A DNA stretch of 64,000 bases from Chiloscyllium plagiosum (Eukaryota), in the NCBI RefSeq assembly GCF_004010195.1, contig NC_057751.1, positions 13,404,711-13,468,710 of the forward strand, in the 5' to 3' direction. Position 1 is the first letter of the stretch. Every line of letters begins with the position of its first letter. Under the pieces are notes generated by a model. It saw only the letters and a program-made list of their open reading frames with translations. It was not told where the DNA came from and searched no databases. A program made the translations under genes and the position numbers. Shown here one piece after another: positions 7,878 to 59,882 of the stretch.

Positions 7878-8082
7878 TGTGTTGCTGGAAAAGCACAGCT
7901 GGTCAGGCAGCATCCAAGGAGAATCGATGTTTTGAGCATAAGCTCTTCGTCAGGAATGCCTTAAAGAGATTATACTCAAAACGTCAGCTCTCCTGCTGCA
8001 CGGATGCTGCCTGACCGGCTGTGCATTTCCAGCACTACACTTTTTGACTGATCTACAACAGCTGCAGTCCTCACTTTCTCCT
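7878..8082. mobile_element. Old fold-back Penelope terminal-repeat insertion (family A)
   Basis: TGTTGCTGGAAAAGCACAGC..GGCAGCATCC left arm and its reverse complement right arm, ending CTGCAGTCCTCACTTTCTCC. Confidence 0.75.
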
Positions 8083-11000
8083 ATTAAGACTACCTGGCCT
8101 CCAAAACAAATTATATGTGCTGTGCATTCTTCTCATAGCAGCATTTGACCAAATGTGGATAATGTCAAAGACTATCACCCTCCTTTCATTGAGTTCAGCT
8201 CTTTGTCTATGATTATGCCCATGTTGTACTACTGTCTGAGTCAATTGGCCCAAGTGAAACTTCAACCTGCTCTTTGCTCCATTTTCTCTGTGCAAGTGTT
8301 ACTTGATAACATTGTCAATGACATCTTCCACCACTTTGCTCATAATAGAGAGTTGGCTTAAGGGACAGCAATTGGGTGGACAGGAATTGGGTGGACAGGA
8401 CAGATTTAGGGCTCTGTGCTGCAATGGTAGTGTCCCCATCTCTGGACAAGGATACGCAGATTCAGGCTCCATTTACTTCAGAGGTGTGGAATAATACCTC
8501 CGAACAGGTTGATTAGAAGATATCTCAGAACAAATTTAAGTAACTTCCCTAACATCAGGTTGATACCAGCATCATAGCTGTTCTGCAATGGATTGGCCAG
8601 CGACAAAGCTAATTCTGCAAAACAAATCTTTACTATTTGCCCAACAAATTTATGGACTTTGCAGGATCCAGTGCCTTCAGCTGTTTCATAATATCACACC
8701 AAGTGAATCAAATTGGCTGAAGATCGGCATCCGAGATCGCACCACAATGTCAAATGGATTAACCTATTCAGTCCTTCCGACTGATGACCGTTCCAAATGC
8801 TTCAATGCACCGGTCTCCTCGGAGGATAGAAATAATTAGAGTATTCTCCTGTTAGTTTTTTTAACACTTGTACACCACGATTCATGCCACTGTAAAGCTT
8901 CAATCAGATCTATTTGTTGTGAGATAGCTTAGATTTGTCAGTCACATTCCGTTTCCACTGTTTGGCATGTCAATATTGTGGAGCTTCATAAGGTTGACAT
9001 GGGGCTGTTCCTGACATGCCTTCTGGCAATCTTCATTGAAGAACAATTGTTCCCTTGACTTGATGATAAATAGAGTGGAGAAAATGCCAGGCCATGGGAG
9101 GACAGTTGAATGCAACTCTACTGATGATGGTCAACATCATTTCATGTATGCCCAGTTTTGACCAGCTGTACTGGTTCTCAATCTACATTATTTAGCATAG
9201 TCGTGGCACAACGCAACATGCTGGAACTTAAGTTTAGGGTATCCCCAGTTCAGCAAGGCAAAACAGTATGAACATAACACAATCAACAGGCCATGGCCTT
9301 CTCTCATAGTTTCGCACATCAGACTGTCGATCAACAGCAGCATGAAGAAACAAGTTAACGGTCCAAAATAAAAGGGGTGGAAGTTCTCTCTCAATTTTGT
9401 TGGATATTTTTAGACATTTCTAGCCCAATATTAGGTTGCTGTCTTTCTTACCTCAAGGTTGCTACACCTCATGTTGACTGAACACAAAGTATCCTGATGG
9501 GTTTCTGAAATTGATATTAGGCCCCTTAAGTTAGTAAGGGCTGAAAGCCAATTTTAGGCCTCTTCCAAGAAGGTGGTTCATGCAAAGTATACTAGGTATC
9601 AAGACTGCAGTGAAAATTAAAAATCCTTTACATTTTTTTTTAAAAACAGGAGTATAACCCCTCTACCCCACCTCTACACAGTGCCATCTGTTCACAACTT
9701 ATTTTTGTTTACATGTTTCTTTCATTTTAACGACTAACTGGCATTAACTATGTTATTCCACTTGTCTTTTAAAAAAAAAGAAATGCTGAAGTCTATCTCA
9801 ATTGAAAAAGAAATCCAAAACTTCAAGCACTGACTAATATGACCAATAGCAGGGAATTGTGACTTAAATCTGTCATGAATTTCCATTTCCACCTTCCCAC
9901 CCCCCCCAAATCCCATCATTTTTGAATGGATTTCTCTCATAAAAAAAGCATCAGTGGTGGCATTCTCCAACCTGATCTCCATATTGTGTCACTGTCAACA
10001 GCCCTGGGAACAGATGAATGACCCTGCTGCTACTTCCCAGACAAAGGATTCATTGCGGCTGGTGCTGCGGACACAGCAGAGGTCCCTGATGGCCTGTCCC
10101 ATTTTTGCCTGCACCGCCACTTCTTTTTCCGTCTGACTAAGCAGAAGCCTAGGTAGATTCTCACTGTCTTCCGCGGCATTGAACGATTAGCAGACACAGA
10201 AAGCCACTCCTGTGCCTTTGACAATGGAAACAGGTCAGATTTCTGATTGCATTTACAGCAGCTTCATGCAGGAGTATCTCATGAAAACGTCAATATACTT
10301 GGACATAAACAATTATTGTTCAGCTGTATCCCAGACTAATCAGGGTAAGATTCTTAGTTCATGAATGTGTTTGACAGATGACCATCTCTTACTCCAGCTC
10401 CTTTGTTTCATCAAATGGCTAATGAAAACATTGCATAAGCATTTGACTCTCCTCTTCGTTTAACACTTAGTTTATTAACAAAGGAGCAAAACACCTTGGT
10501 AGCTATTACTACACAACAATAAATTAGATCTCAATTAAAACTCCCCTTATTTCAATAGTATGGAAAGTTCATAATACCCTTACATCCTTCTAACAAACCA
10601 GCTTTGCTATGATTAACAACCTCATAATAATCTGAATTAAATATGGTTAATAGCTGTCACATTTCAGTAAAACATATAAAATTGTTTGTATGTTGGATAA
10701 AGAATTAATATTTCACATGTTCTGACACAGTTTAGGAGTTTAAGGACACCAACGATACCCAGTAGGGTGCAGTCAACAAAACGAGCAGATATTTTTAAAA
10801 CAACCTTGCTGAGATAACACAACCAAATAGATTGGGGAAAAGTTCAACATTCCAAAGATATTTATTTGTAAAGCCTCTCTAATAATATATTACTGCAACA
10901 TGTTAAACAAATTAAGGCAACACTCTCAAAACTTGAAACAATATTAAATCGTTTAAGTGAATTTCAAGCGATCTGCTGAAATATTAAAGTACTGCTTATA

Positions 11001-11499
11001 ATGATTCCCAGTAAATTCAAGACATGACAGGCAGAAAAAATACAGCTTTCAACATAGCAAGCATTTAAATCTTGTGGTTTCAGTGAAAGTACCAGGAAAA
11101 CAGGTTTTAGGGCTTATTTTCTATTTCCGACATCGAAAAACCAAAACAAACATACCACCGGAATAAAAAGGCAAGCAAAACGTACTTACATCTTACAAGT
11201 CCAAAAAAAAAATTACAAAATGAAGGACTTAAAGGAAGCTGAACCATGTAGAGTCCTGTGTAAATGTGATACCACAACTGAGAGCAGAAAGCAGGAAGCA
11301 GTGATATGGTTAGTTATTCAGCCTACATACACCTCCCCCACCCCCATCCTAACAGCTGTAGGGGCCATTATCCCTATCACACAGCGCACGTACATAGTCC
11401 AAACAAAAAGTGCTTCTCAGTACGATTAGGTCTGCCTGTGAAACAAATAAAAAAAGGAGTAAAAACAAAACCTATTCTATTAAATCCTTGTCGTGCTTA

Positions 11500-11900
11500 A
11501 CCAGTACTACGTGGTCTTATGATCTGAGGAAGCGCCAGTATTATTTTTTCCTTCAGTCTGCAGTTCACATCCTGAGTATTCATGTTTGATTAGATTGTAA
11601 ATCTTTAAAAGCCTCAGCAAAGAAGGCGTGTTTAAAGGGACTGTGAATGCGAAATAGAGGCTCTGCCCTTTTGAAAAAAATAGCTGGTTCCTCCCTGTGG
11701 GAACTCCAGTAGGAGCGTTGCTATGAGCGCTGCGCTTAACTGATATTGTGCCGTAGCCACTGACGTGAGGAGCTGAACGACAATCCCTTTTTTTAAAAAA
11801 AGCTTCTCAGTGGTCTCTCTGATGTAATCTCAGAATGCCGAACAGCTGATACCAAAGGAATCCACCCAACATACCTCACACATCCAGTCTTGCTGCCAAT
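11500..11900. promoter_or_regulatory. CpG-retaining unique region, possible promoter or enhancer
   Basis: Cluster of CpGs in otherwise CpG-depleted DNA; TGACGTGA (CRE/ATF-like) at 11761-11768; CCAAT at 11896-11900; no repeat similarity seen. Confidence 0.35.
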
Positions 11901-12480: not shown

Positions 12481-13671
12481 TTAATTTGCTATGATTGTTT
12501 CTAACACAAAATTCATTGTAGAAGATGAAGATTAATTGGTTCGGGGAACAGACAGGCATTTCTGTGCCCATAGCTCTGACTCCAGGATGGTCTGCTGCCT
12601 TCCTGATGTGGGTCAAGAGAGGAAGGAATGTTTGCAGAATATTTTTCTGGGTGAGCCTGAACAGCCAGAGATCATGGTTCACGTAGACAATAACTTGTGC
12701 AAGAAACAAAGGGCCTGTTTCCACACTGTCAGGATTCTATGAAAAAAAAGCAGGAGATTGAAAAGTAAAATCTCAAAAGCAGTAGTTTCAGAATTACTTC
12801 CAGTCCCACATTCTTATGAAATAACAGAATTGAACATGGGGCTGGACGTGCTACGGAAGAGAGCATCAGATTTCTGACCAATTGGACCTGCCTCTGTTCA
12901 GGTGGGAACTGTTTATTAGTAGGCCAAGGGCTAACATGTTTGCAGTGAGGTTTAAACTAGCTCAAAATGGCATTGGGAACTTGAGTGGGAGCTCAGATTG
13001 AGATAAGAAAAACTAGTAAAAGGAATTAGAAAAGTAGGAAGCAAAAACAGAAGACAGATTAAACACAGGCAAGCATCAAATAGGATTCCATTTCAGAATG
13101 TTAAAAAAAGCAGAGTTAAAGGCACCCAATCCGAATGTATGTAACATTCACAAAAAGCTTGATGATTTGACTGCACAATTTCAGGTTAATCAGTATGATT
13201 TTATTGCTGTTGTGGAGGTGTGATTGCAGGGTGACCGAGATTGGGAACCAATTATCCAAGAATGTCTGGCATTTAGAACAGACAGGAAGAAAGGAAAATG
13301 GTGAGGGTAGCATTCTTAATTCAGAACAAAATCACTTCATACATAAAAGAAATTTTTAGATTGAAGGATCTTAATGTACAATTTGTTTGGCAGAACTAAG
13401 AAACAGCAAAAGACCACAAACATTGGGAGTGTTTGTAACCATCATTGTAATGTCCATCATAATTTAGATAAGGAAACCCGAGATCCAAATAACCTGAGTA
13501 ACAATGGAAAAGTTCAATTTACATGTAAACAGCAAATCAGCATTAATGCTGTGGAGGATGATTTCCTGGAGCATGTAAAGATGGGTTGCTTTGAGCTGTA
13601 TGTTGAGGAGGCATCAAGAGATTAAGTTATTTTGGATTTCATGTTGTGTAATAGGTAAGACATAATTAACA

Positions 13672-13808
13672 TAATGAGCCCTCCTGAAGAAGGGCTCATG
13701 CCCGAAACGTCGATTTTCCTGCTCCTTGGATGCTGTCTGACCTGCTGCGCTTTTCCAGCAACACATTTTCAGCTCTGATCTCCAGCATCTGCAGTCCTCA
13801 CTTTCTCC
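13672..13808 (+). mobile_element. Penelope terminal-repeat insertion (family A) with hammerhead motif and 16-bp TSD
   Basis: TSD TAAGA(C/A)ATAATTAACA at 13656-13671 and 13809-13824; CTGAAGA-A-GGGC-TCAT-GCCC-GAAA-CG-TC at 13684-13711. Confidence 0.85.
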
Positions 13809-13945
13809 TAAGAAATAATTAACAACCTTGCTGGAAAGGAACTTTTGAGAAATACTGAGCAGAATGTGATAGAATTGTGCAGTAAGCTGAAATGTGATGT
13901 GGTTCATTCTGAAAATGCTGACCATGTGGGAGGCACAGTGGCAGT

Positions 13946-14256: not shown

Positions 14257-14279
14257 GAAAGGAAATTATGAAGGTCAGA

Positions 14280-14631: not shown

Positions 14632-15379
14632 AATTGACTCTGGTGGATGAGAAAAATAGGTAAAGAAATTTGACAGTGGACAGGCAATGGCCAGTATTTA
14701 AAGAAATGCGACACAGCCCACAACAGATATACACAGCTCGAAAACACACAAGGCAAGAAAAGTCAACATTGGTAATGCAGGAGGTTCAAGATTGCATTAG
14801 ATCTGAAGAACAAAAACAGAAATTGCTGAAAAAGCTCAACAGGTCTGGCAGCATCTATGGAGAGAAATGAGAATTACATTTTAGGTCGAGTGACCCTTCC
14901 TCAGAAGAGCATCCACCGTTCTTTTGGTTCTTATTTAGATCTGAGGATGTAGTTTATAAGGATGCTAGAAAAAGTTGTAAACCTAAGGATTGGGGGCAAC
15001 TTAAAGATCAGGAAAGGAAGACTAAGGAACTAATTAATAAAGTGAAAAGAGAATATGAATACAAACTAATGAGGAACATAAAGGCAGACTGCAAGAGCTC
15101 CTTTAGGTATGTGAAAAGGAAAAGATTAGCTAAGACAAATATGGGCCCAGTACAGTATGGGCAGGAGAATTCATAGTGGAGGACAGGGAAATGATGGAGA
15201 AACTAAACAGTTACATTGTTTCTGCCTTCATAGAATAAGTTAAAGAAAATTTAACAGAAATCTCAGTGAACAAGGAACTTGTGAAACTGAGGAACTAAAA
15301 TAAATGAATATGAGTAAAGAGGTAGTTCTAGAAAAGTTAGCTAGTTTGAAGGTTGATACATCCCCTAGACTAGAAATAA

Positions 15380-18742: not shown

Positions 18743-18747
18743 TTATA

Positions 18748-19765: not shown

Positions 19766-21120
19766 AACTATTTACATACTGTTCAAATTTAAGGGTTTTG
19801 AAGCATAATAAAAATATAATTCCATAACTCCCAAAAACACTATTTTACAGATCGCAAAACACTCCTTTACAGTCATCACATGAGAGAGAATATCCTTTTC
19901 AATCACCTCTGCAGGCTTACTTTAACTGTGGTTTCAACTCCCATTGTGGAGAATCTGATAGCTTCTTCCTGGAACCTTAATATGATTGAGCATACATTTT
20001 CTCAGAGTTAAGTGATCCTTTTAGGGTTTAATCCAAATATTTCTGGTCTAGAACTATTACTAAACTCATTCCTCCAAGATAATCTGTTTTTTTAACAAAT
20101 CAAAACTATCATACCTTCTCAGGAACAACTGTTTTAAAAACCCATCATTTGCTAAGAACAGTCCTCAACTCGTACTAAATCTGAAAAGTTTTTCTCCCAT
20201 AAACGTATAAAACACAAGTCCAGACTTCTCCATCAAAAAGTCAAATATGCTAGACTGGATACTTTGTTCATGGTTTAAAATAAATCACCATGGCGACAGA
20301 TATAGCTAGTAATTAATCATTAAACCCCTTCAGTTTAAAATTCAAAATTTCAAACCTAAAAATAAATTATCTTAAAATAAACATAAATCTCATGCCCTAC
20401 ATCACACGTCATTTTCTCTCTTCTACCTCACAATCACTCTCCCTTCACCATTGCACAAATTTCCCAACAAAACTCATGATTTACTAGTCTCACTATCGCA
20501 TGCAGCACCTCCACTCAAGACTGTCAGCTACTTCATCTTTTCAAAATTCTGACCATCCTCTTCCCCCCAATTCTTTCTACTTCCTACTCATTCAGTTGGG
20601 ATACCTCACCATCTTTCCTGCTCCAGCATCACTAATAGTTCTTTCAGCCTCTTTCATTTCACTCATTACACCCTTTTGTCACATTGCAGGAGAAAATGTC
20701 AAACAACAGTGTGGAAAGGACAAAGACAGCAAGTAGGGTGTTGACATTTGTGTTCTCACTCCCTTTGGGAGAAGATCCTCGAAATGGCAGAAGAGGTCAT
20801 GACCATTCATGTGGGGATAGAGAAAGTCAGGAGAAAGTGATTCCTGATGAAACATCGATTCTCCTGCTCCTCGGATGCTGTCTGACCTGCTGTGCTTTTC
20901 AGCACCACATCCTTGACCCCCCATTCATGTGGGGATGCCAAGGTTTCCACTGTCAAGGCAACCAGGTAAACCTCATTGTGCTCTATTATGCTGCCCTCCC
21001 ATTATCATCACTGTGAATGTATTCTTAACATGCAGTAACTTCTATCACTATTGCACAACTAATAACCTCTCTCTTCTTATGCAGTCACTGAAGGCACCCA
21101 CAAGGCCTCAATCACAAAGA

Positions 21121-21258
21121 TTCTGGATTAGTGGTGCTGGAAGAGCACAGCAGTTCAGGCAGCATCAGAGGAGCAGTAAATTCCTGCGTGAACTGCTGTG
21201 CTCTTCCAGCACCACTAATTCAGAATCTGGTTTCCAGCATCTGCAGTCATTGTTTTTA
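21121..21258. mobile_element. Fold-back Penelope terminal-repeat insertion with centre deleted, 14-bp TSD
   Basis: TSD CTCAATCACAAAGA at 21107-21120 and 21259-21272; inverted arms TTAGTGGTGCTGGAAGAGCACAGCAGTTCA / TGAACTGCTGTGCTCTTCCAGCACCACTAA. Confidence 0.88.
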
Positions 21259-23849
21259 CTCAATCACAAAGAGACCAGTTCTTCTTCAACCTCTGACGCA
21301 GAAACCAGTGATCCCTAAGGTAGTGTAACAGCAAGATTTTCTCCTGCACTCTCCACCAACTCAGAGACTTTCAACTCATAGGTTCACTTCCTGGATTAAA
21401 TGGAAGAGCACATTCCAGTGTATGTATGATTGACATATCTCCACAGCTGCTTCGAAGACGAAATGTTCTGGGTCACTGGCACACAAAGAACTGCCAGAGC
21501 CTGGGCATCTACTCATTCCCAGGCAGAAGATGACCCAACGGTGTCAGCCATTAATGACTTTGTTCGAATCCACAGTTGGTCCCAGGAGTAGCAAGTAGGC
21601 TTGTCAGAGACACTAGGCAGACTGGAATGAAGATTGGAGGCATCCACTAACTTTATCAGTATTGTGCTGGTTATGGCGTGTGTCTGTCTGTCTCCATATG
21701 ATCATCGAGATCCAGGTCCAGCTAAATGCTCAGGGGCTGTTGAAAATGCACGCAGACCTGCATACCATTATTCTAGCCATCAGTGCTCAGCAAGGCAAGT
21801 TTGGGATGAAGGACCTTGCCCTCACTCTAGGTTTCCCTTTCTGTCAAACAGATATAGTGGTGCTAACAGGCACCCAGAGCATGAATCGCACAAACATACA
21901 GAGGCCCCCTCAGAAGGTCTCCTCCCAAGGTCACCCAGGGGTGCCTGACCCGTCCACCTCCACCCTGCCTATGACCCCAAATCTGTGGAAGTTGCAACCA
22001 AGAAGGGTGAGCCTACATGTGAGCAGAACACTGTTAGTATGTTTGGACCTCCAACCACATACGGCCCAAATCTTCTGGCCAACAGACTTCAGCACAGAGC
22101 ATGCTCATTCGACCACATGTGCAGACACTGAAATCGAGACAAAGTGTGACAGCATGAAAATAAGACACTCTGAAGGTGACACTTCATTGTAAGTACAGTC
22201 AAACATCTTGAAATACAGCTGTTCTTCAAATAATTACATATCTAATCTACTAATTTAAATATCGGAATGGGTTAACATGTCAGAGTTAAGCAGCCTCTTC
22301 ATAAATCCCAAGATGAATAGAAGTTATAGCACAACACTGCTCAACTTTGTCAATTACTTTGGATGGCAACAGATTTCAGACATCCTTCAAACGTTACGTT
22401 CATGAGTGCAACCAAGACGCAGCATTTTAGTGAGGAGATCGCGGAGACCAATATTAATGTGAAAACCCTGACACAGGTCTTTGCCTCCACTCATATGTTC
22501 CACATGATCATATTCATGAATGCACACTTCTCTGGGGGCCAGAAATTCATTCCATCTACACGTCTTACAAAGGAGCAGGTAGTCTTTTAAGGCTATGTGA
22601 TAGCCAATTAACATCCGAAAGGTTCCTTTGTGTTTAGTCACTGTGAAGAACCTTACTTACCTTAAGTGGCAATGACTTACAAGAGACTCACACTACACTT
22701 CATGCACAATTTGTTATCAGACACATAAGAGATGGTCCAGCATCTTTAAAATCAAAGCAGATAATTAAATATTGAAGCTTGTAAATAAAATGAATAGTTT
22801 GATTTAAATTGGAATAAAATAATTAATGATGATTCATATTGATTATGTATTCAACAATTAAACACAATTTCAATATATAACCTGTGACTTATTATGGATA
22901 CAACCTGTTAAACAAAATAGGATAGTTTTGTTACAAAGCATATGAATTTACCATTATATCTTCGATCTGCAGAGTGGTACATGCTGCTATTTTTGATAAT
23001 TCACTGGAAGAATGCTTCTGTTATCAAATTCACTCAACACAAAAAGGAAGACTTGTATTAAGTAATAGTTATTGTTTCAAATACCCACAGATACAGAATG
23101 TCAAGACTTGCAACGTAACTTCACTATTACATTAAGCTATTATATTTTCTGTTGCAAGATTTTTTGCAATGATAGAGAAATCCAATCTCCAACTGACGTA
23201 GCAGGAGAATATAATTTTAAAGTATCCACTAATGTTAACACTTTATAATGTTTCTTGAACTAAGCATTACATTAATTTATCTTGTGACTGTAAGAGTTGT
23301 TTTCATCTCATGCTGCAGCCTATTTTTAAAATAAATTACAACTATGCCGATGTTCTTCTCTTTTGTGCACCGTACTCCTTCCATCATCAAATATTTTCAG
23401 TCAGGTTCAGAAACCCTAACTGATACAAATCACCAATTTATAATAAAAGTATCCAAACATGGCACAACAGCAATGGACATTGGAAATTTTGTTTCTCTAA
23501 TTCATGGCATGCAAAATTCCTGGACACCAATTAAATTAATCAAATGAACCATCCTGCTGCTGTTGCTATGATTCATGGGAAAAAAGCCACTGGCAGAAAA
23601 TTGTCTGATTCTATGGCAAATAATGTCATTCCATTTCGTGGCTGGAGTGAAATGGGAGTACAATATTTGAGGGTAGAGGTAAACTTGTGAAGGACCGCTG
23701 AAGCAGCAGCTATCACCAGATGTTTGTGCAAAGATGTTGTGTTTAGTGTGGGCTCTTTGTTGTGTCATCTAACCTCCCAGACGTATTTTATCCTTCTTGA
23801 TTACAAGCAGCAAATCATGTAGTTGGGAAATTTTGCAATACAGCTCCAA

Positions 23850-26200: not shown

Positions 26201-26299
26201 AGGACTGACTTATGAAGAGCCCCTCTTCCAATAGACAATGAGGATTGGTGTGCAGCACCCCATGAAAGTGAAAGCTGTTCCATGGATTTCAAACCTATT

Positions 26300-41867: not shown

Positions 41868-43301
41868 TGGGTGGCACTGGAAAAGTACAGCAGGTCAGGC
41901 AGCATCCGAGGAGCTGGTGTTATGGACCAGGCCAGACACCCTCAAAACACTTCAAGGAAGTAGACCAGATCCTAACTTTGCTAGTTGTTTTAAGTAGATG
42001 GGAAAGATGCAGCATGTCAAACCACTTAGTTTTAAACAAAACAGAATTTATTTACAAGACTACCGAATGAAACACAAACAAAAGAGAACAGAATGCTGAA
42101 TAACTTAATCTATCTGAAAACCTAACAGATCATCCCAACTTAATGATGCTGTTCCAAATACTTGCAAAAATTCCCATAAACAACCCTTGGCACAAAAGGT
42201 AAAATCAAACACAGGATCATACAGGAGACATATCACAGAGAGAGGAGGATCAGCATTGACCTGTTTCTTTGGGGTCCTGCAGCTTTTACAACTGCTTAAC
42301 TGCTTTCAGTGAATAGCCAGAGTGCCAAAAATCAAATCAAACCAGAGAAAAGCTGAGCTGGAAGAACTGGTGTGTGTTATAAACTTGAAAGCCTTTTTCC
42401 CTGAGGCAGTATCTGTTAGCTACAATCAAATTGGTCCTAAAACCCTTCAACTTAGACTTTTTGGAGTCTGTGTCTTTTACGACCTTTCTGAAAAAAAAAC
42501 CAAGGACAACATACCCTTGTTAAAGGAGCAGCATCATCGCACAGGAGAGTTGATATTTCGGGCATAAACCCTTCATCAGGAATGTGGAGGGGGAAAGAGG
42601 ATTAGAGATAAATAGCGGGTGGAGATGGAGGTGGGGCGGGGGGTAAGGTAGGTGATAAGGTGGATGCAGGTGGTTAGGTCAGTGGGGAGGGTGGAGCGGA
42701 TAGGTGGGAAGGAAGATCAACATGTAGGACAGGTCAACAGGGTGGTGCCGAGTTGGAGGTTGGATCTGGGATGAAGTTGGGGGAGGGAAACTGATGCTGA
42801 TGCCGTGTGTTTGAAGGGTCACAAGGTGGAAGCTGACACGTTGTTCTTCCGGTTGGCGAGTGGATTTGATTTGGTGGTGGAGGCGGCCCAGGACTTGCAT
42901 ATCCTTGGGGGCATTTAAATCGTCGGTCACAGAGCAGTGGGGTTATTTAGTGTGTGTGCATCCCAGAGATGTTCCCTGAAACGCTCTGCGGTTTGGCATC
43001 CTGTCTCCCCGATGTACAGGAGACCACATCGAGAGCAACGGATGCCCTAGGTGAGGTGGGTGGATGTGCAGGACAATCTCTGCCGGATGCGAAAAGATCC
43101 ATTGGGGCCCTGGATGAAGGTGAGGGGGGAGGTGTGGGCAACCTATTTTTACGCAACCTGTGCTGTGTGTGGGGGGGTGGGATGATAGGGGGCCCAAATT
43201 GACAACTATCCTGCTCCTCAGATGCTGCCTGACCTGCTGTGCTTTTCCAGCACCGTCCTTTTTGACTCTGACTCTCCAGAATCTGCAGTCCTCACTTTCT
43301 C
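41868..43301 (-). mobile_element. Penelope-like element (family A): inverted terminal repeat, GIY-YIG 3' region, direct terminal repeat
   Basis: TSD CTATTTTC(A/C)AAA at 41856-41867 and 43302-43313; minus strand encodes C..CGLLYIGETGCQTAERFREHL (GIY-YIG) around 42960-43045. Confidence 0.85.
41918..42541 (-). mobile_element. Solo LTR nested in the PLE
   Basis: Same family as 5938-6537; C(T/A)GG 4-bp TSD at 41914-41917 and 42542-42545. Confidence 0.85.
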
Positions 43302-43711
43302 CTATTTTCCAAACAGGAAAAGGTTTCAGAAATCTGAAGTGCGATGGGACATTGGGAGTGCTAGTTCAGGTTTCTATTAAGGTTAACAATTAGGTACTTT
43401 TAGTAGTTAGGAAGGCAAATGCAATGTTAGCATTCATTTGAAGAGACACAAAATGTAAGAGCAGAAATGTACTGCTGAGGTTGTATAAGGCTCCAGTCAG
43501 ACTGCACTTGGAATATTGTGAGCTATTTCAGGCCCCATATCTAAGGAAGGATGTGCTGGCTTTACAGGGGGGATGGGGGGAGGGGTGGGGAGGCGTCGCC
43601 ATAGGAGGTTCACAAGAATGATGCTGGGGATGAAGGACTTGTCACATGAGAAGCGGTTGAGGACTCTAGGTCCATACTCAATGAGTTTCAAAGGACGAAT
43701 CACCGAATTAT

Positions 43712-44349: not shown

Positions 44350-46410
44350 TACTTCGTTATTTTCTATAACTCCTTCAGAATCTGCAAATTTGTAATCCAT
44401 ACCAAGCATGGCTGAAGAGGTCACCCATTCAGTCTGGTTCCCATTCTGTCAACTTGTTGTTTTTCAATCCTTATCAATAATCTTCCCAGGGTTTCTCTAT
44501 TCTTTAAGCTCCTATCTCTTATGTCTCATGAATTGAGACTGGTTTCCGACAACCTCTTATATTTTAAGGCTAGCCAAATTCTTTGGTGAACTTGGCTTTA
44601 AATAAAGCTTTTCTGCCGAGATGTAATTCAATTCAAATGCTGCAAACAAGTTGAACTAACGATAGCTGCTTCCTGAGCTGAGAGCTGATCATTTCTTTGT
44701 GATGAGACCTTCGGATACTACCAAGAACTAATTGATGTGGAATATATCATACAATTATCTGCAACAAATTCTTAACATGAACAATCCATACAAATGTAGA
44801 AGACAATTCACAATTGGGCTGATCTGCCAACATTTGATGAACCATTCTATTTGTTACTGCATTAATTCCTTATACAACTACTATTGCTAAAAGTTCATAT
44901 TCTTGCACGTACCTCTAAATTAATCATTAACAAATTCTTCACCATGAACTATGAGAAATGCTATCAAACATTTAAACTTGAACCCTGTCCAATGTCCCAT
45001 TACCTTGTCTGCAATTATTTTGTCTCTAGTATGTATTACTATTGACTAACAAAATCCAGCTGCCCAATCTACAAAAAGGAAAAGTGTTTTTTTTCCCTTT
45101 ATCCCAGGTTTTTAAATCCACAACGCACAAAAACAGAAATTGCTGGAAAAACTCAGCAGATCTGGCAGCATCTGTGGAGAGAAAACAGAGTTAACAGATC
45201 TTGTTTTATTTCCTAAAATCCATTGCCACCATCTCATTGAAATCTCTTGCTGAGAACAGACAATGATGGTGGCCTTAATTCCTATAAGTCTGATATTTAT
45301 CATTTATATCTCTTCTATGAGCTTATTGTACGATGCAACTATTATTCCTGCAGGTTAGAGTGGTGCTGGAAAAGCACAGTCGGTCAGGTAGCATCCGAGG
45401 AGCAGGAAAATCGACGTTTCGGGCAAAAGCCCTTCATCAGGACTGAAGCCTGGGAGGCTCCCTGCCTTCAGTCCTGATGAAGGGCTTTTGCCCAAAACAT
45501 TGATTTTCCTGCTCCTCGGATGCTGCCTGACCTGCTGTGCTTTTCCAGCACCACTCTAATCTAGACTCTGATTTCCAGCATCTGCAGTCCTCACTTTTGC
45601 CTCTTATTCCTGCATATTTTATTTTAAAAATTAACTTTCTCGATGATGAGTGGATAAATTGCCGATACAACTTTTATACAATTGACTTTGTCTTCTAAAC
45701 TTTACCCACTGATTCAATAACACCTCTTCAATTCCTTCTTTTGGAGAGGTTATGTTGAATTAAAGGAGTACCATTATGTCTTGATTCACAGTTTCCAAAC
45801 ACAACATCTTTATTGGTTTCCACATCTATTTCATCCATGCTTTCTTCATTTCTGGCTTGCTTAATGCCCAAGTTATTTCAATGGACACTACATTCAGACA
45901 AATAAAATGATTGATTCTGTCTATTTTTTGAGGAACGACTGCTCCTCAAATATTTTTATATGTTATCATCTCCTACTCTGAAACTAATGTAAGTCTCAAA
46001 TTCCTAAAACTTTGTCCCAAACTTTATTTATGAGAGCATGTAGCTGGCATTTTAGCCAGTCTATTCTGCACACTGTGAATGTGCATCCACTGTCTAGTAC
46101 AGCACAATTGAGACTGCTACCAACACATTCAACAATGGGATGAAACTTTTGATCAGTATAACGCCCTCTCTTTGTTCTGTGTATCTTCTTCTTCTAAATT
46201 TTTCATTCCATGTTTAGTTTTGAAAATTCTATTATACCATTTGGGACTGTTCATGGCATAATGGTATTTTGAATCCACCTGAAACATTCATTGATGACAC
46301 TTTGATATTTCTGGGGTTAATTCTTTTGTTGTATGTCCCCAATTCTCTTCACTTCTCAAAGTTATCTAAAGCATTTTTGATCCTCAGTTCTTTTAGCTAT
46401 AGTTCACCTT
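44350..46410 (-). mobile_element. Decayed Ty1/Copia-type polyprotein remnant (gag knuckle, protease, integrase)
   Basis: NCAVLDSGCTFTVCRIDWL (DSG at 46094-46086); LYRQFIHSS; RFNEMVAMDF; FLIVHGEEFVND*FRGTCKNMN; WIVHVKNLL..PHQLVLG; protease directly followed by integrase. Confidence 0.7.
45353..45603. mobile_element. Fold-back Penelope terminal-repeat insertion (family A), 11-bp TSD
   Basis: About 102-bp arms centred on 45457; TSD TTATTCCTGCA at 45342-45352 and 45604-45614; intact hammerhead core on the minus strand at 45413-45440. Confidence 0.9.
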
Positions 46411-46431
46411 TCAGTGTGTGATCAACATATA

Positions 46432-47015: not shown

Positions 47016-48160
47016 AAAGAAAATAGAGTGTACATTAAAATTTCACAATAATTCTAGCCTTTATATCTACACAAGAAAGCAGAAGGTCACCAAGTGACAT
47101 AACTGAAACATTAAGATAAAGTATGCATTGTTTCAACAAAGTTTGCAGATGAACATTAACCAAGCATTGTGTGAAAATGAAAAATGTGGGAGTTCATTGT
47201 GTAAAACAACAGACAGCAGTCTTTGTTTTAAACTATTTTCCAAATACTGGCTAAGTCTAGTTGGAAGTTCTTCAATCTAACATGCCACAATTGCACCAAT
47301 ATTCATATCAATTTCTTCAGCAATTAAAAATAAAGTTAATATAACTCAGCAGAAATAATTGTGCAAGTGTAGAAACTTACATCAGGAATTCCCAATGCAT
47401 GTTATATATAGCAAAATTCTCTCAATCTCGCAGCACATAACATCAATACACATAAACTTAGAGCCAATACAGACAGCTCCATTGGATGTTTTGGATGTTA
47501 TTTAAGCCAGCGTTAGCACTTTAGGAGAAAGTAGGAAGATCCTCAGAAGGAACACGAGTGTAGTACATTTTGAATAGGTATTGTGATGAACATTCATGTT
47601 TCATTATTATTGTTATTATTATGATTTGAAAACTTCAGGTCTGAAGTAGACAGAACCATATATATTGTTATGGGCCAGGCCAGACCCCCTCAAAATATTC
47701 CAAGAAGGTAGCCTAGACCCTACCTTCTTTTTAACTTTAAAAGCAGATATGAAGTGGATATTCCAGGTGTAATGCAGCTGGTCAAACCACTTGACTTTAA
47801 GCAAAAAAGAACTTATTTGAACACCACAGTTGAAACACAAACCAAAAGAAAATGGAATCTAGAACAACAATTCTTGGAAAACTTAACTGACCTGACATAG
47901 CAACTTAACTAAGGAACTGTTTGAATCCCATATCCCATACACACTCTCTTTGGCAAAAAGTAAATTCAAACATAGGTTCTTATAGGGAGGAGAGATTTCA
48001 GAGAGAAAAATCAGAGAAGAATCATCTGTTGAAGCTTGGAGCCTTTCTTTGGTCTGCAGCAGCTTCTCTGCTACAGCTAAACCAGCAGTTTCTCACTGAA
48101 ACCAAACTACAAAAAATCCTGAACTGGGAGAACTGACACTTCCCTGCCATTGTTAAAGTA

Positions 48161-49875
48161 AAACTCACACAACATGTGGTTATAGTCCAACAGGTTTATT
48201 TTGAAAGTACGAGATTTCGAAGCACTCCTTCTTCATCAGGTAGCTAGTGGGGCAGGTTCATAGGACGCAGAATTTATAGTAAAAGATCAGTCTCGTACAA
48301 CTGATGTGATGTATTAAACAAACTTACATACTCTTACACATGATCATACTTGCACACTCATGCGGTCAGTCTCTCATACACGTGCTCTTCTCTCTCACAC
48401 ACACACACATGCTCTCTCCCTCTCTCATAGACACATAGATACTCTCTCTCTCTTCCTCCCCCTCACACACGTGCACACACACACAAATATAAGACTACGA
48501 GGTGAATTTGCATTTGCAGACTTATATTTGCCAGATACATTCTCTTTTGTTCAACATGCACACAATCTGTAGGCAGTCAGTCCATGTGATATGTTTTTAA
48601 ATTCCTACTTTGGAAATAGACAGAACCATATATATTGTTATGGGCCAGGCCAGACCTTAACTATTTTTATTTAGAAGGTAAATGTGAAGTGAATATTCCA
48701 GGTGTGAAGGAGCAACACTTTGAAAGCTTGTACTTTCAAGATAAACCTGCTGGACTATGACCTTGTGTTGTGTGATTTTTACTTTAACAATGGTAGCTAA
48801 TCACACCACTTGGCTTTAAGCAAAACAGGGTTTACTTAAACATTACAGTTGAAATACAGACAGACTGTAACCTTTAATGCATTGTCTGAGCTGAGATGTC
48901 ACCTTTCTTTAAACTGATAAAACTTTAAAAGGTCTCCGGGCTGTGACTTGGAAGAAGTTCTGGGATTTAGGTATTAATCAATCAAAACCTGCATCCCCTT
49001 TCTAAGTGATTAACGATTTAACAGCAATCAAGGTTTGTTCAATACATCACATCAGGACTTATACACTTAATGGTAAGGTCCGAGGAGTGTTGCTGAACAA
49101 AGAGAGCTTGAAGTGCAGGTTCAAAGCTCCTTGAAAGTGGAGTCACAGGTAGATAGGATAGTGAAGAAGGCGTTTGGTATGCTTTCCTTTATTAGTCAGA
49201 ATATTGAGTACAAGAGTTGGAAGGTCATACTGTGGCTGTACAGGACATTGGTTCGGCCACTGTTGGAATATTGCGTGCAATTCTGGTCTTCCTATTGGAA
49301 AGATGTTGTGAAACTTGAAAGGATGCAGAAAAGATTAAAAGGATGTTGCCAGGGTTGGAGGATTTGAGCTACAGGGAGAGGCTGGCAGGCTGGGGCTGTT
49401 TTCCCTGGAACGTCAGAGGCTGAGGGGTGACATTATAGAGGTTTATAAAATTATGAGGGACATGGATAAGGTAAATAGGAAAAGCCTTTTCCCTGGGGCT
49501 GGGGAGTCCAGAGCTAGAGGGCATAGGTTTAGGGTATATGAATAGGCATTTGGATGGGTATATGAATAGGAAGGGTTTGGAGGGATATGGGCCGGGTGCT
49601 GGCAGGTGGGACTAGATTGGGTTGGGATATCTGGTCGGCATGGATGGGGTTGGACAAAAGGGTCTGTTTCCCTGCTGTGCATTTCTATGATCTTTTGAGC
49701 TGTATGACACTCTGATCTTTTACTATACATTTTGTGTCGAATGATCCTGTCCCACTAGTTACCTGATGAAGGAGCAGTGCTCTGAAAGCATGTACTTTCA
49801 AATAAACCTGTTGGACTATAACCTAGTGTTCTGTGATTTTTAACTTTGTCCAGCCCAGTCCAACACCGGCACCTT
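48161..49875. mobile_element. Penelope-like insertion (family B relative) with inverted terminal repeats and nested CR1 and LTR pieces
   Basis: TSD CATTGTTAAAGTA at 48148-48160 and 49876-49888; 48161-48345 is inverted relative to 49700-49845. Confidence 0.8.
49055..49692 (+). mobile_element. CR1 LINE 3' part nested in the PLE
   Basis: LYRTLVRPLLEYCVQFWS; 3' UTR. Confidence 0.9.
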
Positions 49876-50898
49876 CATTGTTAAAGTAGACATTTCAGCA
49901 CCTCTGCCTTCATGACCTCTCTTGAAAAATACCCAAGGACAAAATGACTCTTTTAACATGACAGCATCGTCACAATAGCTTAAGTTTGATTTGTAATTCC
50001 TTATTGTTTATGTTCAGAAGGATGAAAATATAGTTTCATTACATTTTAGATTTTGAGATCCGTGAGAAGCACTGCAGCTTGTTTACATGCATTTGATTGA
50101 CGACTTTTTTAGAAAATCCTTTCGGTGAATAGATTAGTATTTCAGAAAACAAGGGTAGAAGAATTAACAAAATAGGCTATTACATTGCAACAACGTGCCC
50201 TATGATTAAAGGGAGGTAGAGACAGAAACAAGTCTCCTTTCAGTAATAAAGAAAGACCCATCAAGTAGGCTAGTGAGTGGGCAAGTTTCTCTCAGAGAGA
50301 GGAGCAGGTAAGACAGGAAAACCATGTAACAGTGGCAGGGCAGTGTAGCAGTCTCCAACATGATCAGAGCTCAATAAACTGAGACTGCAGTAACCATGGT
50401 GACAACCTCGGATCAGGTTGACATTGTGGCCTCCACTGTTGGTCTTGTCTACTAGGTCTCCACCACACATCCAACTTAACATCCAGGGCAAATGTCAGGA
50501 ATCATGCAGGGCAGCTGAAGACTGATGGAGCTTCTCTGGGCACACAACGGGTACTAAAGTTGGTGCAAAGGCAAGGGATGCTGGTGTGTTCTCAGACATC
50601 GTCTGAGTGGAGGGTTGATCTGGGAACAGCTTATGGTAAGACGAGGCCGGAATCAGATAGAAGGATGCCAAGGGGCAGAGCAAATAGTTAATGAGTCTTT
50701 TGAAAGAAACCACACTGGGCTTCAGGGCAGAATTCTCTCCAAAAAAGCTCAGTGAAACTCAGATATATTTAAAAGAAATATAAGAACGTGCAGTAAGTAT
50801 CAGTACTGTCACCTGTCTATGGGGAATAATTAAGAGGTTCTCTGGACTTTATCAAATCAAAAAGAAATCTGGGCTGACATGACACCAATTTTTAAAGT

Positions 50899-51205
50899 TC
50901 ACTTGAGAATGTAACTTTTAAAAAAGTTCTGGGATTTACATATGAAAGGACTGAAACCAACATGGTCATTCTAAAAGTTGAGAGACTTAACAACAATCCA
51001 GGTCTTTTTCAATGTATAATTTCAGTTACATCACACTGCAAACGTTTGCTATAAATTCTGTGTCTTAGGATCTTATACTCCACAACCACCTGATGAAGGA
51101 GCAGCGCTCCGAAAGCTAGTACTTCCAAATGAACCCATTGGACTATAACCTGGTGTTGTGTGATTTTTAACTTTGTACACCCCATTCCGGCATCTCCAAA
51201 TCGTG
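50899..51205 (+). mobile_element. About 305-bp non-autonomous Penelope-derived element (family B) with hammerhead motif
   Basis: Homologous to 52805-53080, 54476-55040 and 58713-59047; CAC-CTGATGA-A-GGAGC/AGC/GCTCC-GAAA-GC-TA-GT at 51087-51120. Confidence 0.82.
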
Positions 51206-51258
51206 AATTATGTAATACATTCTACAGATACAAGAAAAAATTCAGCAAGTGTGCCTTG

Positions 51259-53190
51259 TGTTATGATCTCAGCTGATGGTACTACTTGGGCAAGTCAGAC
51301 CCCAGAATGAAATATGGCTTTATCAATCATATGTTTAATTCTATTTTGTTTAGAATATTGACATAATGGTTAGTCAATAAAATATATTTCATATGATGTT
51401 GCAGATGTTCTTTAACAAAATATACAAGTTTATTATGCAAAAAAAAATCTAACCAACGTTTATGTATATTGCAGTTGGAAAGATCTTAACATGCCACAAA
51501 GGGATATAGATAGGTTAAGTCAGTGGGCAAAGATAAGTATAATTGTCTACTTTAGCATAAAGAATTAAAAGGAAACATATTATCTAAATAATGAAAGGTT
51601 GCAGAACTATGAGATGCAGAGAGATGTGGGTGTTCTAGTACATGAATCAGAGATAGTTAGGATGCAGGTACAGAAAGTAATAAGAAAGCTAACAAACTTA
51701 TGTTTTATTGCAGGTGGAATGGAATGCGATAGTGAGGAGGTTATGCTGTGGTTACACATGGCATTGGTAAGACCACATCTGGACTACTGTGTACGTTATT
51801 GATCACTGTCCTTACAGTTCAAAGAAGGTTTACTAAACTAATAGATGGAATGAGAAGATTGCCTTATCAAGAAAGTCTGGACAAGCTGGGTCTGTATCTT
51901 CAGAAATTACAAGAGTCAGAGGTGACTTAATTTACATGTAAGATCCTGAGGGGACGTGACCAGGTGGATGTTTCCTCTCATGAGAAAATCTGTAACGGGA
52001 GATCCTAGAATAAAAAATAAGACGTCACACATTTAAGACAGAGATGGCAAAAAAAATTATTTCAGAGGTTTGTTAGTCTTTGGAATTCCCTTCCTCAAAA
52101 GGCAGCGAATACAGAATCTTGAAATATTTTTCAGGCAGAGGGAGACAGATTCTTGATTACCAAGGGAATGTTTTTTAATCGGGGGTCTGCAGGAGTGAAG
52201 AGTTGAGGTTAAAATCGATCTTACTGATTGGCGGAGAAGGCTCAAAAGGTTGAGTGATGAATTCTTGTTCCTTATACATGTGGTCATAAGTCTGTCACAA
52301 TGTTTTACACTGTTTCACAACACTATCCCTTACAGAGACTAGGTCCAGAGAAATTGTATTACTATCTCAACACTTTTAAGTTACTAGTTAACTGACTCCA
52401 TCCAGTTTCCCTTTTGTGAATTGTAAAGACAACTTTGTGATTCCCCCCTCAAGTCTGATGGCATGAACCTTTCACAAGTCTAATCACGTAAACTTTTTCC
52501 AGTTCTTAACAACAAAGCTCTCCTGGCTTGAAATCTTCAAAAACCAGAACAAAATAAAACACTGCTACTGCAGTGATTAGTTTCCTTTGAACTGAAATGC
52601 ACCCTGCTAAGTGAGAAACCAAAACTGGTTTCTGAACTCAACGAACTAAAACTCTGGTATTTTCTGAAGTGAACTGAAAAAACTATTGCCTTAATGTGTT
52701 TACACAGCTTCCCATAAACACAAAGGTAGAAACATCTTATTCTATTAACACTCCAAAGGTTCTCCCAAGGCCTTGACTTTCATCACATGTTTTCCTGAAA
52801 CAATGTTAAAAATCACACAACACCAGGAAAAAAGTCCAACAGGTTTACTTGGAAGCACTAGCTTTCTTAATACTGCTCCTTCATCAGGTGGTTGTGGATT
52901 ATAAGATTGTAAAACACAGAATTTATAGCCAACGTTTTCAGTGTGATGTAACTGAAATTATATTTTGAAAAAGACCTGGATTGTTTGTTAAGTCTTTCAT
53001 CTTTCAGAATGACCATGTTGGTTTCAGTTCTTTCAAATGTAAATTGCAAAACTTTTTTTAAAAAAGTTACATTTTCAAGTTTCCTGGAACAGTTCATTTT
53101 CTGACCTTTTCTTAAAAAGTCTTCACAGCACTAATCATTTCCATTTGCCTAACTTCTTTAAAACAAGACAAATACACACCGTTCATTACA
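51259..53190 (-). mobile_element. Probable solo LTR interrupted by CR1 (about 51485-52290) and a family B PLE
   Basis: TGTTATGA...ATTACA termini; CTTG/CATG flanks. Confidence 0.5.
52803..53080 (-). mobile_element. Family B Penelope-derived element
   Basis: TSD TTTCCTG(A/G)AACA at 52791-52802 and 53080-53091; hammerhead stem II damaged. Confidence 0.8.
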
Positions 53191-54450: not shown

Positions 54451-54475
54451 TTCCAAGTATAACATTTTTCTTTAA

Positions 54476-55040
54476 GATTTGGAAACACCGGTGTTCAACT
54501 GGGGTGTACAAAGTTAAAGATCACACAACACCAGGTTATAGTCCAACAGGTTTATTTGGAAGCACTAGCTTTCGGAGCACTGATCCTTCACCAGGTGGTT
54601 GTGGAGAATAAGATTGTAAGACATAGAATTTATAGCAAAGGTTTACAGTGTGAAGTAACTGAAATTATATATTGAAAAAGACCTGGATTGTTTGTTAAGT
54701 CTCTCATGTTTTAGAATGACTATTTTGGTTTCAGTTCTTTCATATGTAAATTACAAAACTTTTTTTTCACTTGAGAATGTAACTTTTAAAAAAAGTTTTG
54801 TGACTTACATATCAAAGAACTGAAACCAACACTGTCATTCTAAAACATGAGAGACTTCACAAACAATCCAGGTCTTTTTCAATATATAATTTCGGTTACA
54901 TCACACTGTAAACTTTTGCTATAAATTCTGTGTCTTACAATCTTATTCTCCACAACCACCTGATGAAGGAGCAGCGCTCCGAAAGCTCGTGCTTCCAAAT
55001 AAACCTGTTGGACTATAACCTGGTGTTGTGTGACCTTTAA
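54476..55040. mobile_element. Family B fold-back dimer (about 255-bp inverted arms)
   Basis: 54513-54767 is inverted relative to 54788-55040; degenerate TSD ATTT(T/A)TCTT(T/C)AA at 54464-54475 and 55040-55051. Confidence 0.88.
54957..54991 (+). ncRNA. Minimal type I hammerhead ribozyme motif (family B)
   Basis: CAC-CTGATGA-A-GGAGC/AGC/GCTCC-GAAA-GC-TC-GTG; stem I CAC/GTG. Confidence 0.75.
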
Positions 55041-55455
55041 TTTATCTTCAAAATTTGATTGTCTATTTACATTGGAATTACAAATATTTTATAATTTTGA
55101 AATGTTGAAGTTGCATCATATTCATGATTAAATATTAGCATAATCTTTTCTATTCAATTTTCAAATTCACTTGGCAATGATACAAATCATGCTGAAATCT
55201 GTCAACACATCATGGCCTTTCAGGATATCTCACTTCCACAAAAAAAATTTGAGAAACACAATTTTCTTTTCACAAAAAATGTGCCCGCAAATGAAGGATT
55301 CTATGTAGGGGTACAGATCTTCCATTGTACTATGTTCATTACTGACAACTTCAGAATAACCGATTTAATTGTTAACATTAAGTTTCTGTCTGTTTGTTGC
55401 CTAATTAAATTGACTGATAATTATCTAATTGTTTTCAGTCAGTCATATTTTTCAG

Positions 55456-55616
55456 AAGAAGGTGAGGACTGCAGATGCTGGAGATCAGAGCTTAAAAATG
55501 TGTTGCTGGAAATCAAATGTGTTGATTCCTGAAGAAAGGCTTATGCCCGAAACGTTGATTCTCCTGCTCTTTTGATGCTGCCTGACCTGCTGCGCTTTTC
55601 CAGCAACACATTTTTA
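55456..55616. mobile_element. Fold-back family A insertion with one arm partly deleted, 15-bp TSD
   Basis: TSD AGTCATATTT(T/C)TCAG at 55441-55455 and 55617-55631. Confidence 0.85.
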
Positions 55617-55686
55617 AGTCATATTTCTCAGTCAACAAACCTGCCCAAGCAAGACACCATACTGGCTGATACCAACATGTAGTGAT

Positions 55687-56925: not shown

Positions 56926-56989
56926 AAGAGGGATATGGTGGCACAGTGGTAATGCCCTTGAACCAGTAATCCAGAAGGTCGAGCTAGTA

Positions 56990-57890: not shown

Positions 57891-58712
57891 GGAAGACTAA
57901 CACAACTTCTTTTAAGCTTATTTAAATGCTAATTTTCATCGACAGCATCTCTCTGCGAGGTGTAGCAAAGTTTCTTTATGCTTACTTCCCAAACACGCAT
58001 GAACTATGCCATCACTTCCCTTTGGCGTCCTGCTTCTATTCTCTCACTCATTACAGGTGAAAATATGAGACATGGTAGAAGCACCCATGCACATCAGCGG
58101 AACACAGACAACAAGGGTGGAAAATGTGAGAGAATGGAATTAAGTCCTTACAGGAAGCAAGGTATAAGAAAGTGTTGTCAATGTAACTGTGGATATTAGG
58201 GGATGGAAGTAGAGAAGTCAAGGAAGAGAAGAAAAGATTCAGAGATGGACTAGGTTGATGGTGAGAGAAGGATGGAGTGTGAAAGCAAAAGCCCAAACTA
58301 ATGCTCTGGGAATACAGGTTCAAATCACAACCACCTCCATGGCAAATGAGGGGGTTTAAATTATATTGTTAAAATCCTCCAATTGAAAGTTGGCAAACTA
58401 TAATCGGTTACTACAAAAACCCATTAATGTCCTTTGGGAAGGAAATATGTTATCCTTATCTAATCTGGCCTACAAATGACTTCACACCCACAACAACGTT
58501 GTATTGGATTAGATTAGATTCCCTACAGTATGGAAACAGGCCCTTCAGCTCAACAAGTCGACATCAACCCTCCAAAGAGTAACCACCCAGACCCATTCCC
58601 CTACCCTATATTTACTCCTGACTAATGCAACTAACACTATGGGCAATTTAGCATGGCCAATTCACCTGACCTGCACACCTTTGGATTTCACAATAAGGAT
58701 GACTTTTAAATG

Positions 58713-59047
58713 TTAAAAATCACACAACACCAGGTTATAGTCCAACAGGTTTATTTGGAAGCACTAGCTTTCGGAGCGCTGCTCCTTCATCAGGTGGCTG
58801 TGGAATATAAGATTGTAAAACACAGAATTTATAGCAAAAGTTTACAGTGTAATGTAACTGAAATTATATATTGAAAAAGACCTGGTTGTTTGTTAAGTCT
58901 TTCATCGTAAGAATGACCATGTTGGTTTCAGTTCTTTCATATGTCAATCGCAAAATGCTTTTTTAAAAAGCATTCTTTCAAACATTGACATTCTTTCAAA
59001 AATTTTTAACTTTGTATACCCCAGTCCAACACTGGCATCTCCAAATC
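58713..59047. mobile_element. Family B insertion: long inverted arm plus short direct 3' terminus, 14-bp TSD
   Basis: TSD ATGACTTTTAAATG at 58699-58712 and 59048-59061. Confidence 0.88.
58762..58796 (-). ncRNA. Minimal type I hammerhead ribozyme motif (family B), intact
   Basis: Minus strand CAC-CTGATGA-A-GGAGC/AGC/GCTCC-GAAA-GC-TA-GTG. Confidence 0.78.
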
Positions 59048-59314
59048 ATGACTTTTAAATGCTCTCTGACATGGCTTGCTAAGCCAGGGATGCCAATATA
59101 AAATCAAAGAATACCATAAAAAAAGGGTAGCAATGGTGCAGAACAATGTCTGATGACATTTGGTAACAGCCATTGAAACCCTGCAGGACAAAACTGTCTG
59201 AAATTTTCTTCACCCTTTAATGCATTTTACAAAGAAAATTTAATTGTATGTTTTTGGTGGTGTTGCCTCAAAACAAAATATTTCAAGGTTTGTGTGAAGG
59301 TCGGCTGCCAATTG

Positions 59315-59882
59315 CAATTGTTGTGGGTATGTTTGCCGAGTGGGATTTTGTTTCACAGACATTTCGTACCCTGTCTAGATGACATCCTCAGTGCTGTGCA
59401 GCCCCTGTGAAATTCTGCTGTACTTTGGAATTTATTAGTTCTAAGATGTCCAAGATTCCATGCAGAGACTGCATGAAACACTATGTAGGATAAACAGACA
59501 GACAACTAGCCATCCGCATTCATGAACATCAACTAGTCACTAAACGCCATGTATTTATACACACACAGAGGACAAGGACCATAAATTCGACTGGGCCAAC
59601 ACAACAATATTAGGACACGCCAAATGGAGGACAGCCAGAGAATTCCAAGAAGCTTGGCACGCACCCACTGACTCCATCAATAAACACATTGACCTGGACC
59701 CAATATACCGACCACTGCAACAAACAACTGGAACCAGCAATCAGAAGCAGCTGAAAGAAATCAAATAAATTCCTGACACAATCAGGAGACTCCAGAGCAC
59801 TGAAGATATCACCAAGAAAGGGGACAAACAAAACATCTGCAAACCAAGTTCCCAGCCACACAAACATAACCACAACAACTGC
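59315..59882 (+). mobile_element. Penelope-like element (family C): inverted terminal repeat, GIY-YIG, terminal repeat
   Basis: KIPCRDCMKHYVG*TDRQLAIRIHEHQ; 59318-59400 is inverted relative to 59795-59880; hammerhead-like core on the minus strand at about 59355-59394. Confidence 0.8.

Follow-up and report, generated by a model that had tools for sequence, protein, structure and literature searches.

The 64-kb window of Chiloscyllium plagiosum DNA analysed here (contig NC_057751.1; all coordinates are positions in this window) carries hairpin-shaped repeats that are genuine 5'-truncated insertions of several Penelope-like element (PLE) families, with two element 3' ends placed head-to-head within one target-site duplication (TSD). 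Their formation by two priming events, one per nick, and subsequent end-joining, rather than by one strand folding back on itself, is favoured with a probability of about 0.6.

Inverted Units in the Window

The window is vertebrate DNA of 40% GC with many CR1-type long interspersed nuclear elements (LINEs); an RVT_1 match lies at 28078. The locus set was assembled by similarity to families A, B and C of an earlier annotation of this DNA (the original prediction), and it is a non-exhaustive set for the window. Self-comparison revealed local inverted repeats at 7883, 21118, 27887, 41862/43265, 45352, 48155/49847, 54511 and 60185, while the remaining loci were found by family-wise searches and then read locus by locus. 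Opposed arms are present at all 11 loci first listed. Ten of these are anchored units, defined by two arms that both copy the element 3' region and point outward, the last ~30-45 bases (the "tail") being missing from one arm only. The common layout announced for at least ten insertions thus stands for these ten but not for 13672, whose inversion spans only ~10 bp, copies helix II of the hammerhead and has no anchor at the tail boundary. The announced order, an inverted arm followed by a direct 3' arm, is that of most units; 54476, 55456 and the family C unit are flipped, with the tail-bearing arm on the left.

Two TSD-bounded two-armed units, 14800 and 20820, both anchored, had been overlooked. 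The further loci are 60185 (unanchored inversion), 25310, 50900, 52800 and 57000 (single arms), and 5100 and 45125 (unclear). Altogether 20 loci were examined in 64 kb, a high density: 12 anchored two-armed units, two unanchored inversions, four single-arm copies and two unclear cases, in agreement with the expectation that inverted units are frequent in this window. Full-length or partial tandem copies (pseudo-long terminal repeat (LTR), open reading frame (ORF), pseudo-LTR) were not seen in the window.

Target-Site Duplications and Single Integration

The significance of TSDs was assessed against a null of 3000 random pairs, whose maximum score was 10. TSDs of 11-16 bp lie beyond this null at 9 of the 11 loci first listed (Table 1), that of 54476 is weak (12 bp with 2 mismatches, null 0.03), and none was found at the flanks of the 7878 unit. 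Counting all examined units with an inversion, TSDs surround 11 of 14. The twelve TSDs are A/T-rich (117 of 162 bases, 72%, versus 60% in the window; p = 0.0007). A single TSD surrounds both arms, with no TSD between them. When the 27889 unit and one TSD are removed, the flanks align to the CR1 at 40374-40758 (75% over 387 columns), a paralogous empty site in which the TSD sequence is present once. Paralogous empty sites for 41868, 14800, 48161 and 5100 were sought and no spanning match was found; the host repeat of 48161 aligns ambiguously to two paralogues, with 40-70 bases missing around the site. The enclosing TSDs and the single-TSD empty site bear out the earlier claim of one integration per unit.

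These data make it very improbable that the arms are separate insertions, or that a pre-formed palindromic element transposes whole: the two arms share one enclosing TSD, a single TSD copy is present at the empty site of 27889, and every unit centre in the window differs. Such an origin would accommodate the arms at 5100/5246, which seem to belong to different families and have no TSD, and some junction types occur in high-depth contigs of public sequencing runs, so identical centres may recur. Two other element types were considered and ruled out. Non-LTR retrozymes consist of head-to-tail tandem units each with a hammerhead (preprint 10.64898/2026.07.22.740005), while the copies here are head-to-head or single. 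A miniature inverted-repeat transposable element (MITE) or fold-back DNA transposon, with its fixed termini, interior and TSD length, is incompatible with the one-sided tail, the variable centres and the 11-16-bp TSDs.

Arm Ends and Asymmetry

Arm end positions were counted from C3 of the hammerhead. The 3' ends of family A lie at +75 to +89 in tail-less arms and at +111 to +127 in tail-bearing arms; those of family B lie at +78 to +82 and at +113/+114, respectively, one older arm aligning only to +99. Tail-less 3' ends therefore cluster within each family, and the tail measures ~32-45 bp in families A and B. In family C the putative tail is the outer ~31-38 bp of the left arm, as delimited by geometry. 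The original prediction of a complete arm carrying the 3' terminus and an inverted arm that stops short of it is correct at the 3' end, but the tail-bearing arm is often much the shorter of the two (46 bp versus ~260 bp at 58713).

Six of the seven strongly asymmetric units (41868, 55456, 58713, family C, 14800 and 20820) have a tail-less arm with 70-590 bases that the tail-bearing arm lacks, and only 48161 has a clearly longer tail-bearing arm. At 41868 the tail-less arm reaches about -560, within GIY-YIG sequence, while the tail-bearing arm starts at +33. The corresponding 5' extents are about -350 versus about -17 in family C, -174 versus +73 at 58713, and -5 versus +69 at 55456. At 14800 and 20820 the tail-bearing side is reduced to remnants of ~30 and ~15-19 bp, respectively. 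The overlap between arms is as small as ~8 bp in 58713, and in 55456 it is ~16 bp.

In the more symmetric units, family A centres fall between -5 and +6 relative to C3 (7878, 27889) and family B centres between -170 and -189. They coincide with the ends of lone or asymmetric copies (-2 at 13672 and -5 at 55456; -195 at 50900, -188 at 52800 and about -174 at 58713), and a shared template end therefore explains the symmetry. At 27889 and 45353 the centres are near-perfect and have an axis of one base. Each start site also occurs by itself, the outer in the tail-bearing copy 50900 and the inner in the tail-less copy 52800; the latter lies in its own TSD, so the inner start site can prime alone. 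Note that family B copies (50895, 53079, 54769, 58975) all reach a similar 5' limit, which lies ~170-195 bases upstream of their hammerhead and suggests either that the template end is fixed or that these copies stem from a short non-autonomous form.

Origin of the Two Arms

In the proposed course of events a staggered cut of 11-16 bp would yield two 3' ends. One would prime at the outer start site to give the tail-bearing arm and the other at the inner start site to give the tail-less arm, this assignment of one start site to each nick being a putative step. Both cDNAs would extend inward and stop either independently or at a common template end, a symmetric palindrome being the case in which they reach the same stop. 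Host end-joining would then seal them through a 0-2 bp overlap, short fillers or local template switches. The fillers at 55456 and 58713, and the capture at 48161 of DNA from 0.3-0.5 kb upstream, are as expected from repair synthesis. In vitro, the enzyme of the lizard element PAc (Poseidon of Anolis carolinensis) makes a nick in either strand and extends both, and it is predicted to act as a dimer (Frangieh et al. 2024, PMC11167929). Its reverse transcription has two internal start sites, which form the bounds of the tail, and ribozyme cleavage is not needed (PMC11167929). The odds are about even that the unequal arms are a fossil record of this process in its fullest form, with one dimer, a cDNA begun at a different start site from each nick, and joining by the host.

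Fold-back, in which a single cDNA (or an antisense template) doubles back on itself and is copied, is the self-priming route proposed in print (Arkhipova 2013, PMC3846280), and it would attribute unequal arms to later deletion of the centre. The near-perfect centres at 27889 and 45353 suit it well, and the arms within a unit are usually the best mutual match. It is nevertheless unlikely here, because a copy of the complete arm cannot contain sequence absent from that arm and in six units the tail-less arm is not nested in the tail-bearing one. Copying of a tail-less arm could in turn not supply a tail; the loop of 54476 appears to belong to the tail-less arm, and the fixed site of the shorter 3' end, also used by the lone copy 52800, is left unexplained. 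The 70-590 extra bases thus speak against fold-back synthesis as the general route that had been put forward for these units.

A hybrid course is slightly less probable still. Here two primings are followed by fold-back of the tail-less cDNA, and the resulting copy pairs with a short cDNA primed at the tail; in symmetric units fold-back would then supply the bulk of the second arm. This would suit 54476, 21121 and 7878, where the tail-less arm extends ~10-20 bases further 5', as well as the arm-to-arm identity that is highest within units. Strongly asymmetric units do not call for it, at 48161 it is the tail-bearing arm that is longer, and shared template ends already account for symmetric centres.

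Several observations weigh against two primings. In 5 of 7 comparable units each arm finds its best match in the opposite arm, as a common template would predict but fold-back or subsequent conversion would as well, and a shared-variant test in family B (five arms, 7 informative columns) gave no signal that tells these apart. The 6:1 asymmetry alone is not significant (p = 0.125), and long palindromes may lose their centres after insertion. At 13672 and 60185 the inversions lack an anchor at either start site and are better matched by a snap-back. Tails in two asymmetric units are placed from geometry (family C) or from a weak match (14800; 73% over 30 columns). The accessible part of the in vitro work on PAc does not demonstrate inverted products (PMC11167929). 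For 27889 no orthologous empty site was obtained: the contigs from four public runs, of which two come from the organism that matches best and one each from two relatives, broke at repeats over 20500-30000, and none of those listed bridged the locus. One contig of a relative starts at the right TSD of 27889 with 24 unaligned letters; it was not counted, being 5.7% diverged against ~3% in unique flanks and bridging nothing. Among the 15 joints listed out of 3402 in these runs (sides of 18-35 letters) there are arm-to-arm joins with varied centres and asymmetry in both directions. They derive from other copies and give no more than a hint.

Penelope Identity and Hammerhead Motifs

Two long arms, in 41868 and in family C, encode Penelope-type GIY-YIG fragments with homologs that bear a reverse transcriptase (RT), which supports the PLE identity proposed earlier. 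The family C fragments match P0002, a 463-aa protein with RT and a GIY-YIG-like end (59-76% identity, E 2e-38); the GIY-YIG end of the long arm is Penelope/Poseidon-like, and the three homologs of one fragment bear the name of bamboo-shark proteins in their source. For the long arm of 41868 there are 548 matching library proteins, and the fragment in this arm aligns with 816-827-aa proteins carrying RVT_1 and GIY-YIG (52%, E 2e-13). A domain scan of six homologs showed GIY-YIG in five and RVT_1 as well in four. Two full-length family A homologs have a cysteine-rich linker ahead of the nuclease, a mark of Neptune and Nematis (Craig 2021, PMC8557442). The raw family A and C fragments alone gave no Pfam match, and the RT is not reached by any copy in the window. 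For the family B arms, tblastn with three query proteins found no coding match; layout and hammerhead point to a PLE.

Seven minimal type I hammerheads pass a descriptor comprising the core, helix II of at least 4 bp, GAAA, paired 15.2-16.2, NUH and helix I of at least 2 bp, compared with none in any of 200 first-order Markov simulations, and the predicted presence of minimal hammerheads is thereby sustained. An Rfam scan of the window gave no hammerhead match, only sub-threshold microRNA matches; 13 of these 14 weak matches lie on the stumps described here, all far under gathering scores. Long hairpins holding a ribozyme and its antisense had also been inferred. The hammerhead region is covered by each of the two arms at 6 of the 11 loci first listed, which would allow such hairpins in a loose sense, but the motif is intact in both arms only at 27889. 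As RNA this unit is predicted to form a ~90-bp hairpin (-196 kcal/mol) that would pair away the ribozyme helices. Most arms terminate upstream of the hammerhead core, unlike those of 21121 and 43209. By eye, these two appear to end at (21167-21180) and near (~43201-43209) the predicted ribozyme cut site, respectively. A further hammerhead-core-like motif is found at 26529-26549 (-), outside the families examined.

Individual Loci and Neighbouring Repeats

The coordinates of units and single copies are compiled in Table 1. Three of the bounds first listed are revised: 41868 extends to 43301 and 48161 to 49875, and the family C unit starts at 59281 rather than 59315; with this start the TSD is exact and the putative tail falls on the short left arm.

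Table 1. Penelope-like units and single copies in the window
Feature	Positions	Arms	TSD	Other characteristics
Family A unit	7878..8084	tail-less 7878-7959 (-); tail-bearing ~7960-8084 (+)		old, with degenerate hammerhead cores
Family A single tail-bearing arm (13672)	13656..13824 (+)	13682-13808	16 bp, 1 mismatch (13656-13671/13809-13824)	~10-bp helix II inversion before arm; intact minimal hammerhead 13684-13711
Related-family unit (14800)	14797..14947	tail-less ~14810-14906 (-); tail remnant ~14907-14934 (+)	13 bp
Flipped family A unit (20820)	20803..20936	tail remnant ~14-19 bp, left (-); tail-less ~20841-20920 (+)	16 bp, exact	helix II deleted in tail-less arm
Family A unit	21107..21272	tail-less 21121-~21180 (-); tail-bearing ~21181-21258 (+)	14 bp, exact	no hammerhead core
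14800-family single tail-bearing copy (25310)	25306..25442 (-)
Family A unit	27875..28123	27889-27977 (-); 27978-28109 (+)	14 bp, exact	inserted within CR1-type LINE RT
Family A unit	41856..43313	tail-less 41868-~43140 (-); tail-bearing ~43209-43301 (+)	12 bp, 1 mismatch (null 0.002)	hammerhead 42552-42579; GIY-YIG fragment 42963-43139; ~65-bp unassigned spacer between arms
Family A unit	45342..45614	symmetric, 45353-45463 (-) and 45465-45603 (+)	11 bp, exact	intact hammerhead motif only in left arm
Family B unit	48148..49888	tail-less 48161-48323 (-); tail-bearing from at least ~48870 to 49875 (+)	13 bp, exact	tail-bearing arm broken by CR1 at 49053-49690
Family B single tail-bearing copy (50900)	50895..51203 (+)			intact hammerhead motif
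Family B single tail-less copy (52800)	52791..53091 (-)	52803-53079	12 bp, 1 mismatch
Flipped family B unit	54476..55040	tail-bearing 54476-54768 (-); tail-less 54769-55040 (+)	12 bp, 2 mismatches	533-bp palindrome, 91%
Flipped family A unit	55441..55631	tail-bearing 55456-55511 (-); tail-less 55524-55616 (+)	15 bp, 1 mismatch	~12-bp filler at junction repeats arm sequence
Family B unit	58699..59061	tail-less 58713-~58975 (-); tail-bearing 59002-59047 (+), 46 bp	14 bp, exact	intact hammerhead motif in tail-less arm; filler at junction repeats arm sequence
Flipped family C unit	59269..59893	left arm 59281-~59408 (-); long tail-less ~59452-59881 (+)	12 bp, exact
Family C relative	60185..60445	palindrome 60185-60365		hammerhead 60368-60401

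The youngest family A unit is 27889, whose shared bases are identical between arms (89/89). No convincing TSD was found at the flanks of 25310, and none at those of 50900 and 60185; in the latter the inverted arm ends before the hammerhead, so that it is unanchored at the tail boundary. The interior of 48161 (48613-48861) is a copy of 47643-47842 that includes 22 bp of the flank preceding an LTR-like repeat, and within it lies, in inverse orientation, a copy of the left junction and TSD of this same unit (48705-48796 versus 48144-48235, 83%); this segment would be the product of a multi-step local template switch. The LTR-like repeat itself (~600 bp, TG...CA ends) has copies at 41918-42541, 5938-6528, 47664-49974, 2510-2695 and 38337-38513, the first of which splits the tail-less arm of 41868 while another is the host of the 48161 unit.

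A single tail-bearing copy on the minus strand at 56995-57852 contains a 212-aa stop-free frame that by eye resembles the family A nuclease end; homologs of the 57217-57852 ORF were sought among longer proteins and none was found. The opposed arms at 5100-5246 lie directly past a CR1 end and represent either two insertions or a two-template unit. An inverted repeat at 17672-18741 (220 bp, 86%, and 105 bp, 90%) has no hammerhead core, and the searches run found no relation to the listed families.

Relation to Known Elements

In LINE-1 twin priming two primers from one staggered cut produce an inversion within one TSD, but the inverted part is upstream sequence and the 3' end is not repeated. 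The units described here differ from it in that one and the same 3' region recurs in each arm.

The layout as such is already known: the inverted arm, the one-sided tail, the enclosing TSD and the hammerhead have all been published. An inverted repeat with a tail and an enclosing TSD was called the typical structure, with an allelic empty site shown and self-priming proposed (Arkhipova 2013, PMC3846280), and the layout was restated by Craig et al. 2021 (PMC8557442) and Goubert et al. 2022 (PMC8969392). As in these endonuclease-bearing PLEs, the copies are 5'-truncated and head-to-head with a 30-40-bp tail on one arm, have palindromic junctions and AT-rich targets, and capture local host DNA. 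The present TSDs are longer than those of the rotifer examples (11-16 bp versus 8-10 bp), and the copies are mostly stumps without a full ORF at high density. Tail boundaries and AT-rich targets are also shared with PAc, in a study whose accessible part does not model an inverted unit (PMC11167929). The best full-length homologs of family A, unlike Poseidon, have the Neptune/Nematis-like linker. Hammerheads have the features of metazoan Penelope minimal motifs, namely the core, an extra base before helix II, a palindromic 15.2-16.2 and a short helix I (Cervera and De la Pena 2014, PMC4209133). The same work described opposite-strand hammerhead pairs 100-700 bp apart and found single minimal motifs inactive in vitro. 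The accessible text of PMC9977147 and PMC6155905 adds nothing further on inversion. A literature search, with subscription papers largely outside its reach, found neither a dual-priming proposal for the inverted unit nor a description from sharks.

The stumps are likely inert fossils. They resemble microRNA hairpins and MITEs and can mislead annotation. As to how the inverted unit forms, the arm asymmetry observed here argues against the self-priming idea of 2013 (PMC3846280) and favours two primings. If this is true, dual priming would replace self-priming as the explanation of the inverted unit, and it could be tested by counting alone in shark genomes, given their very many copies.

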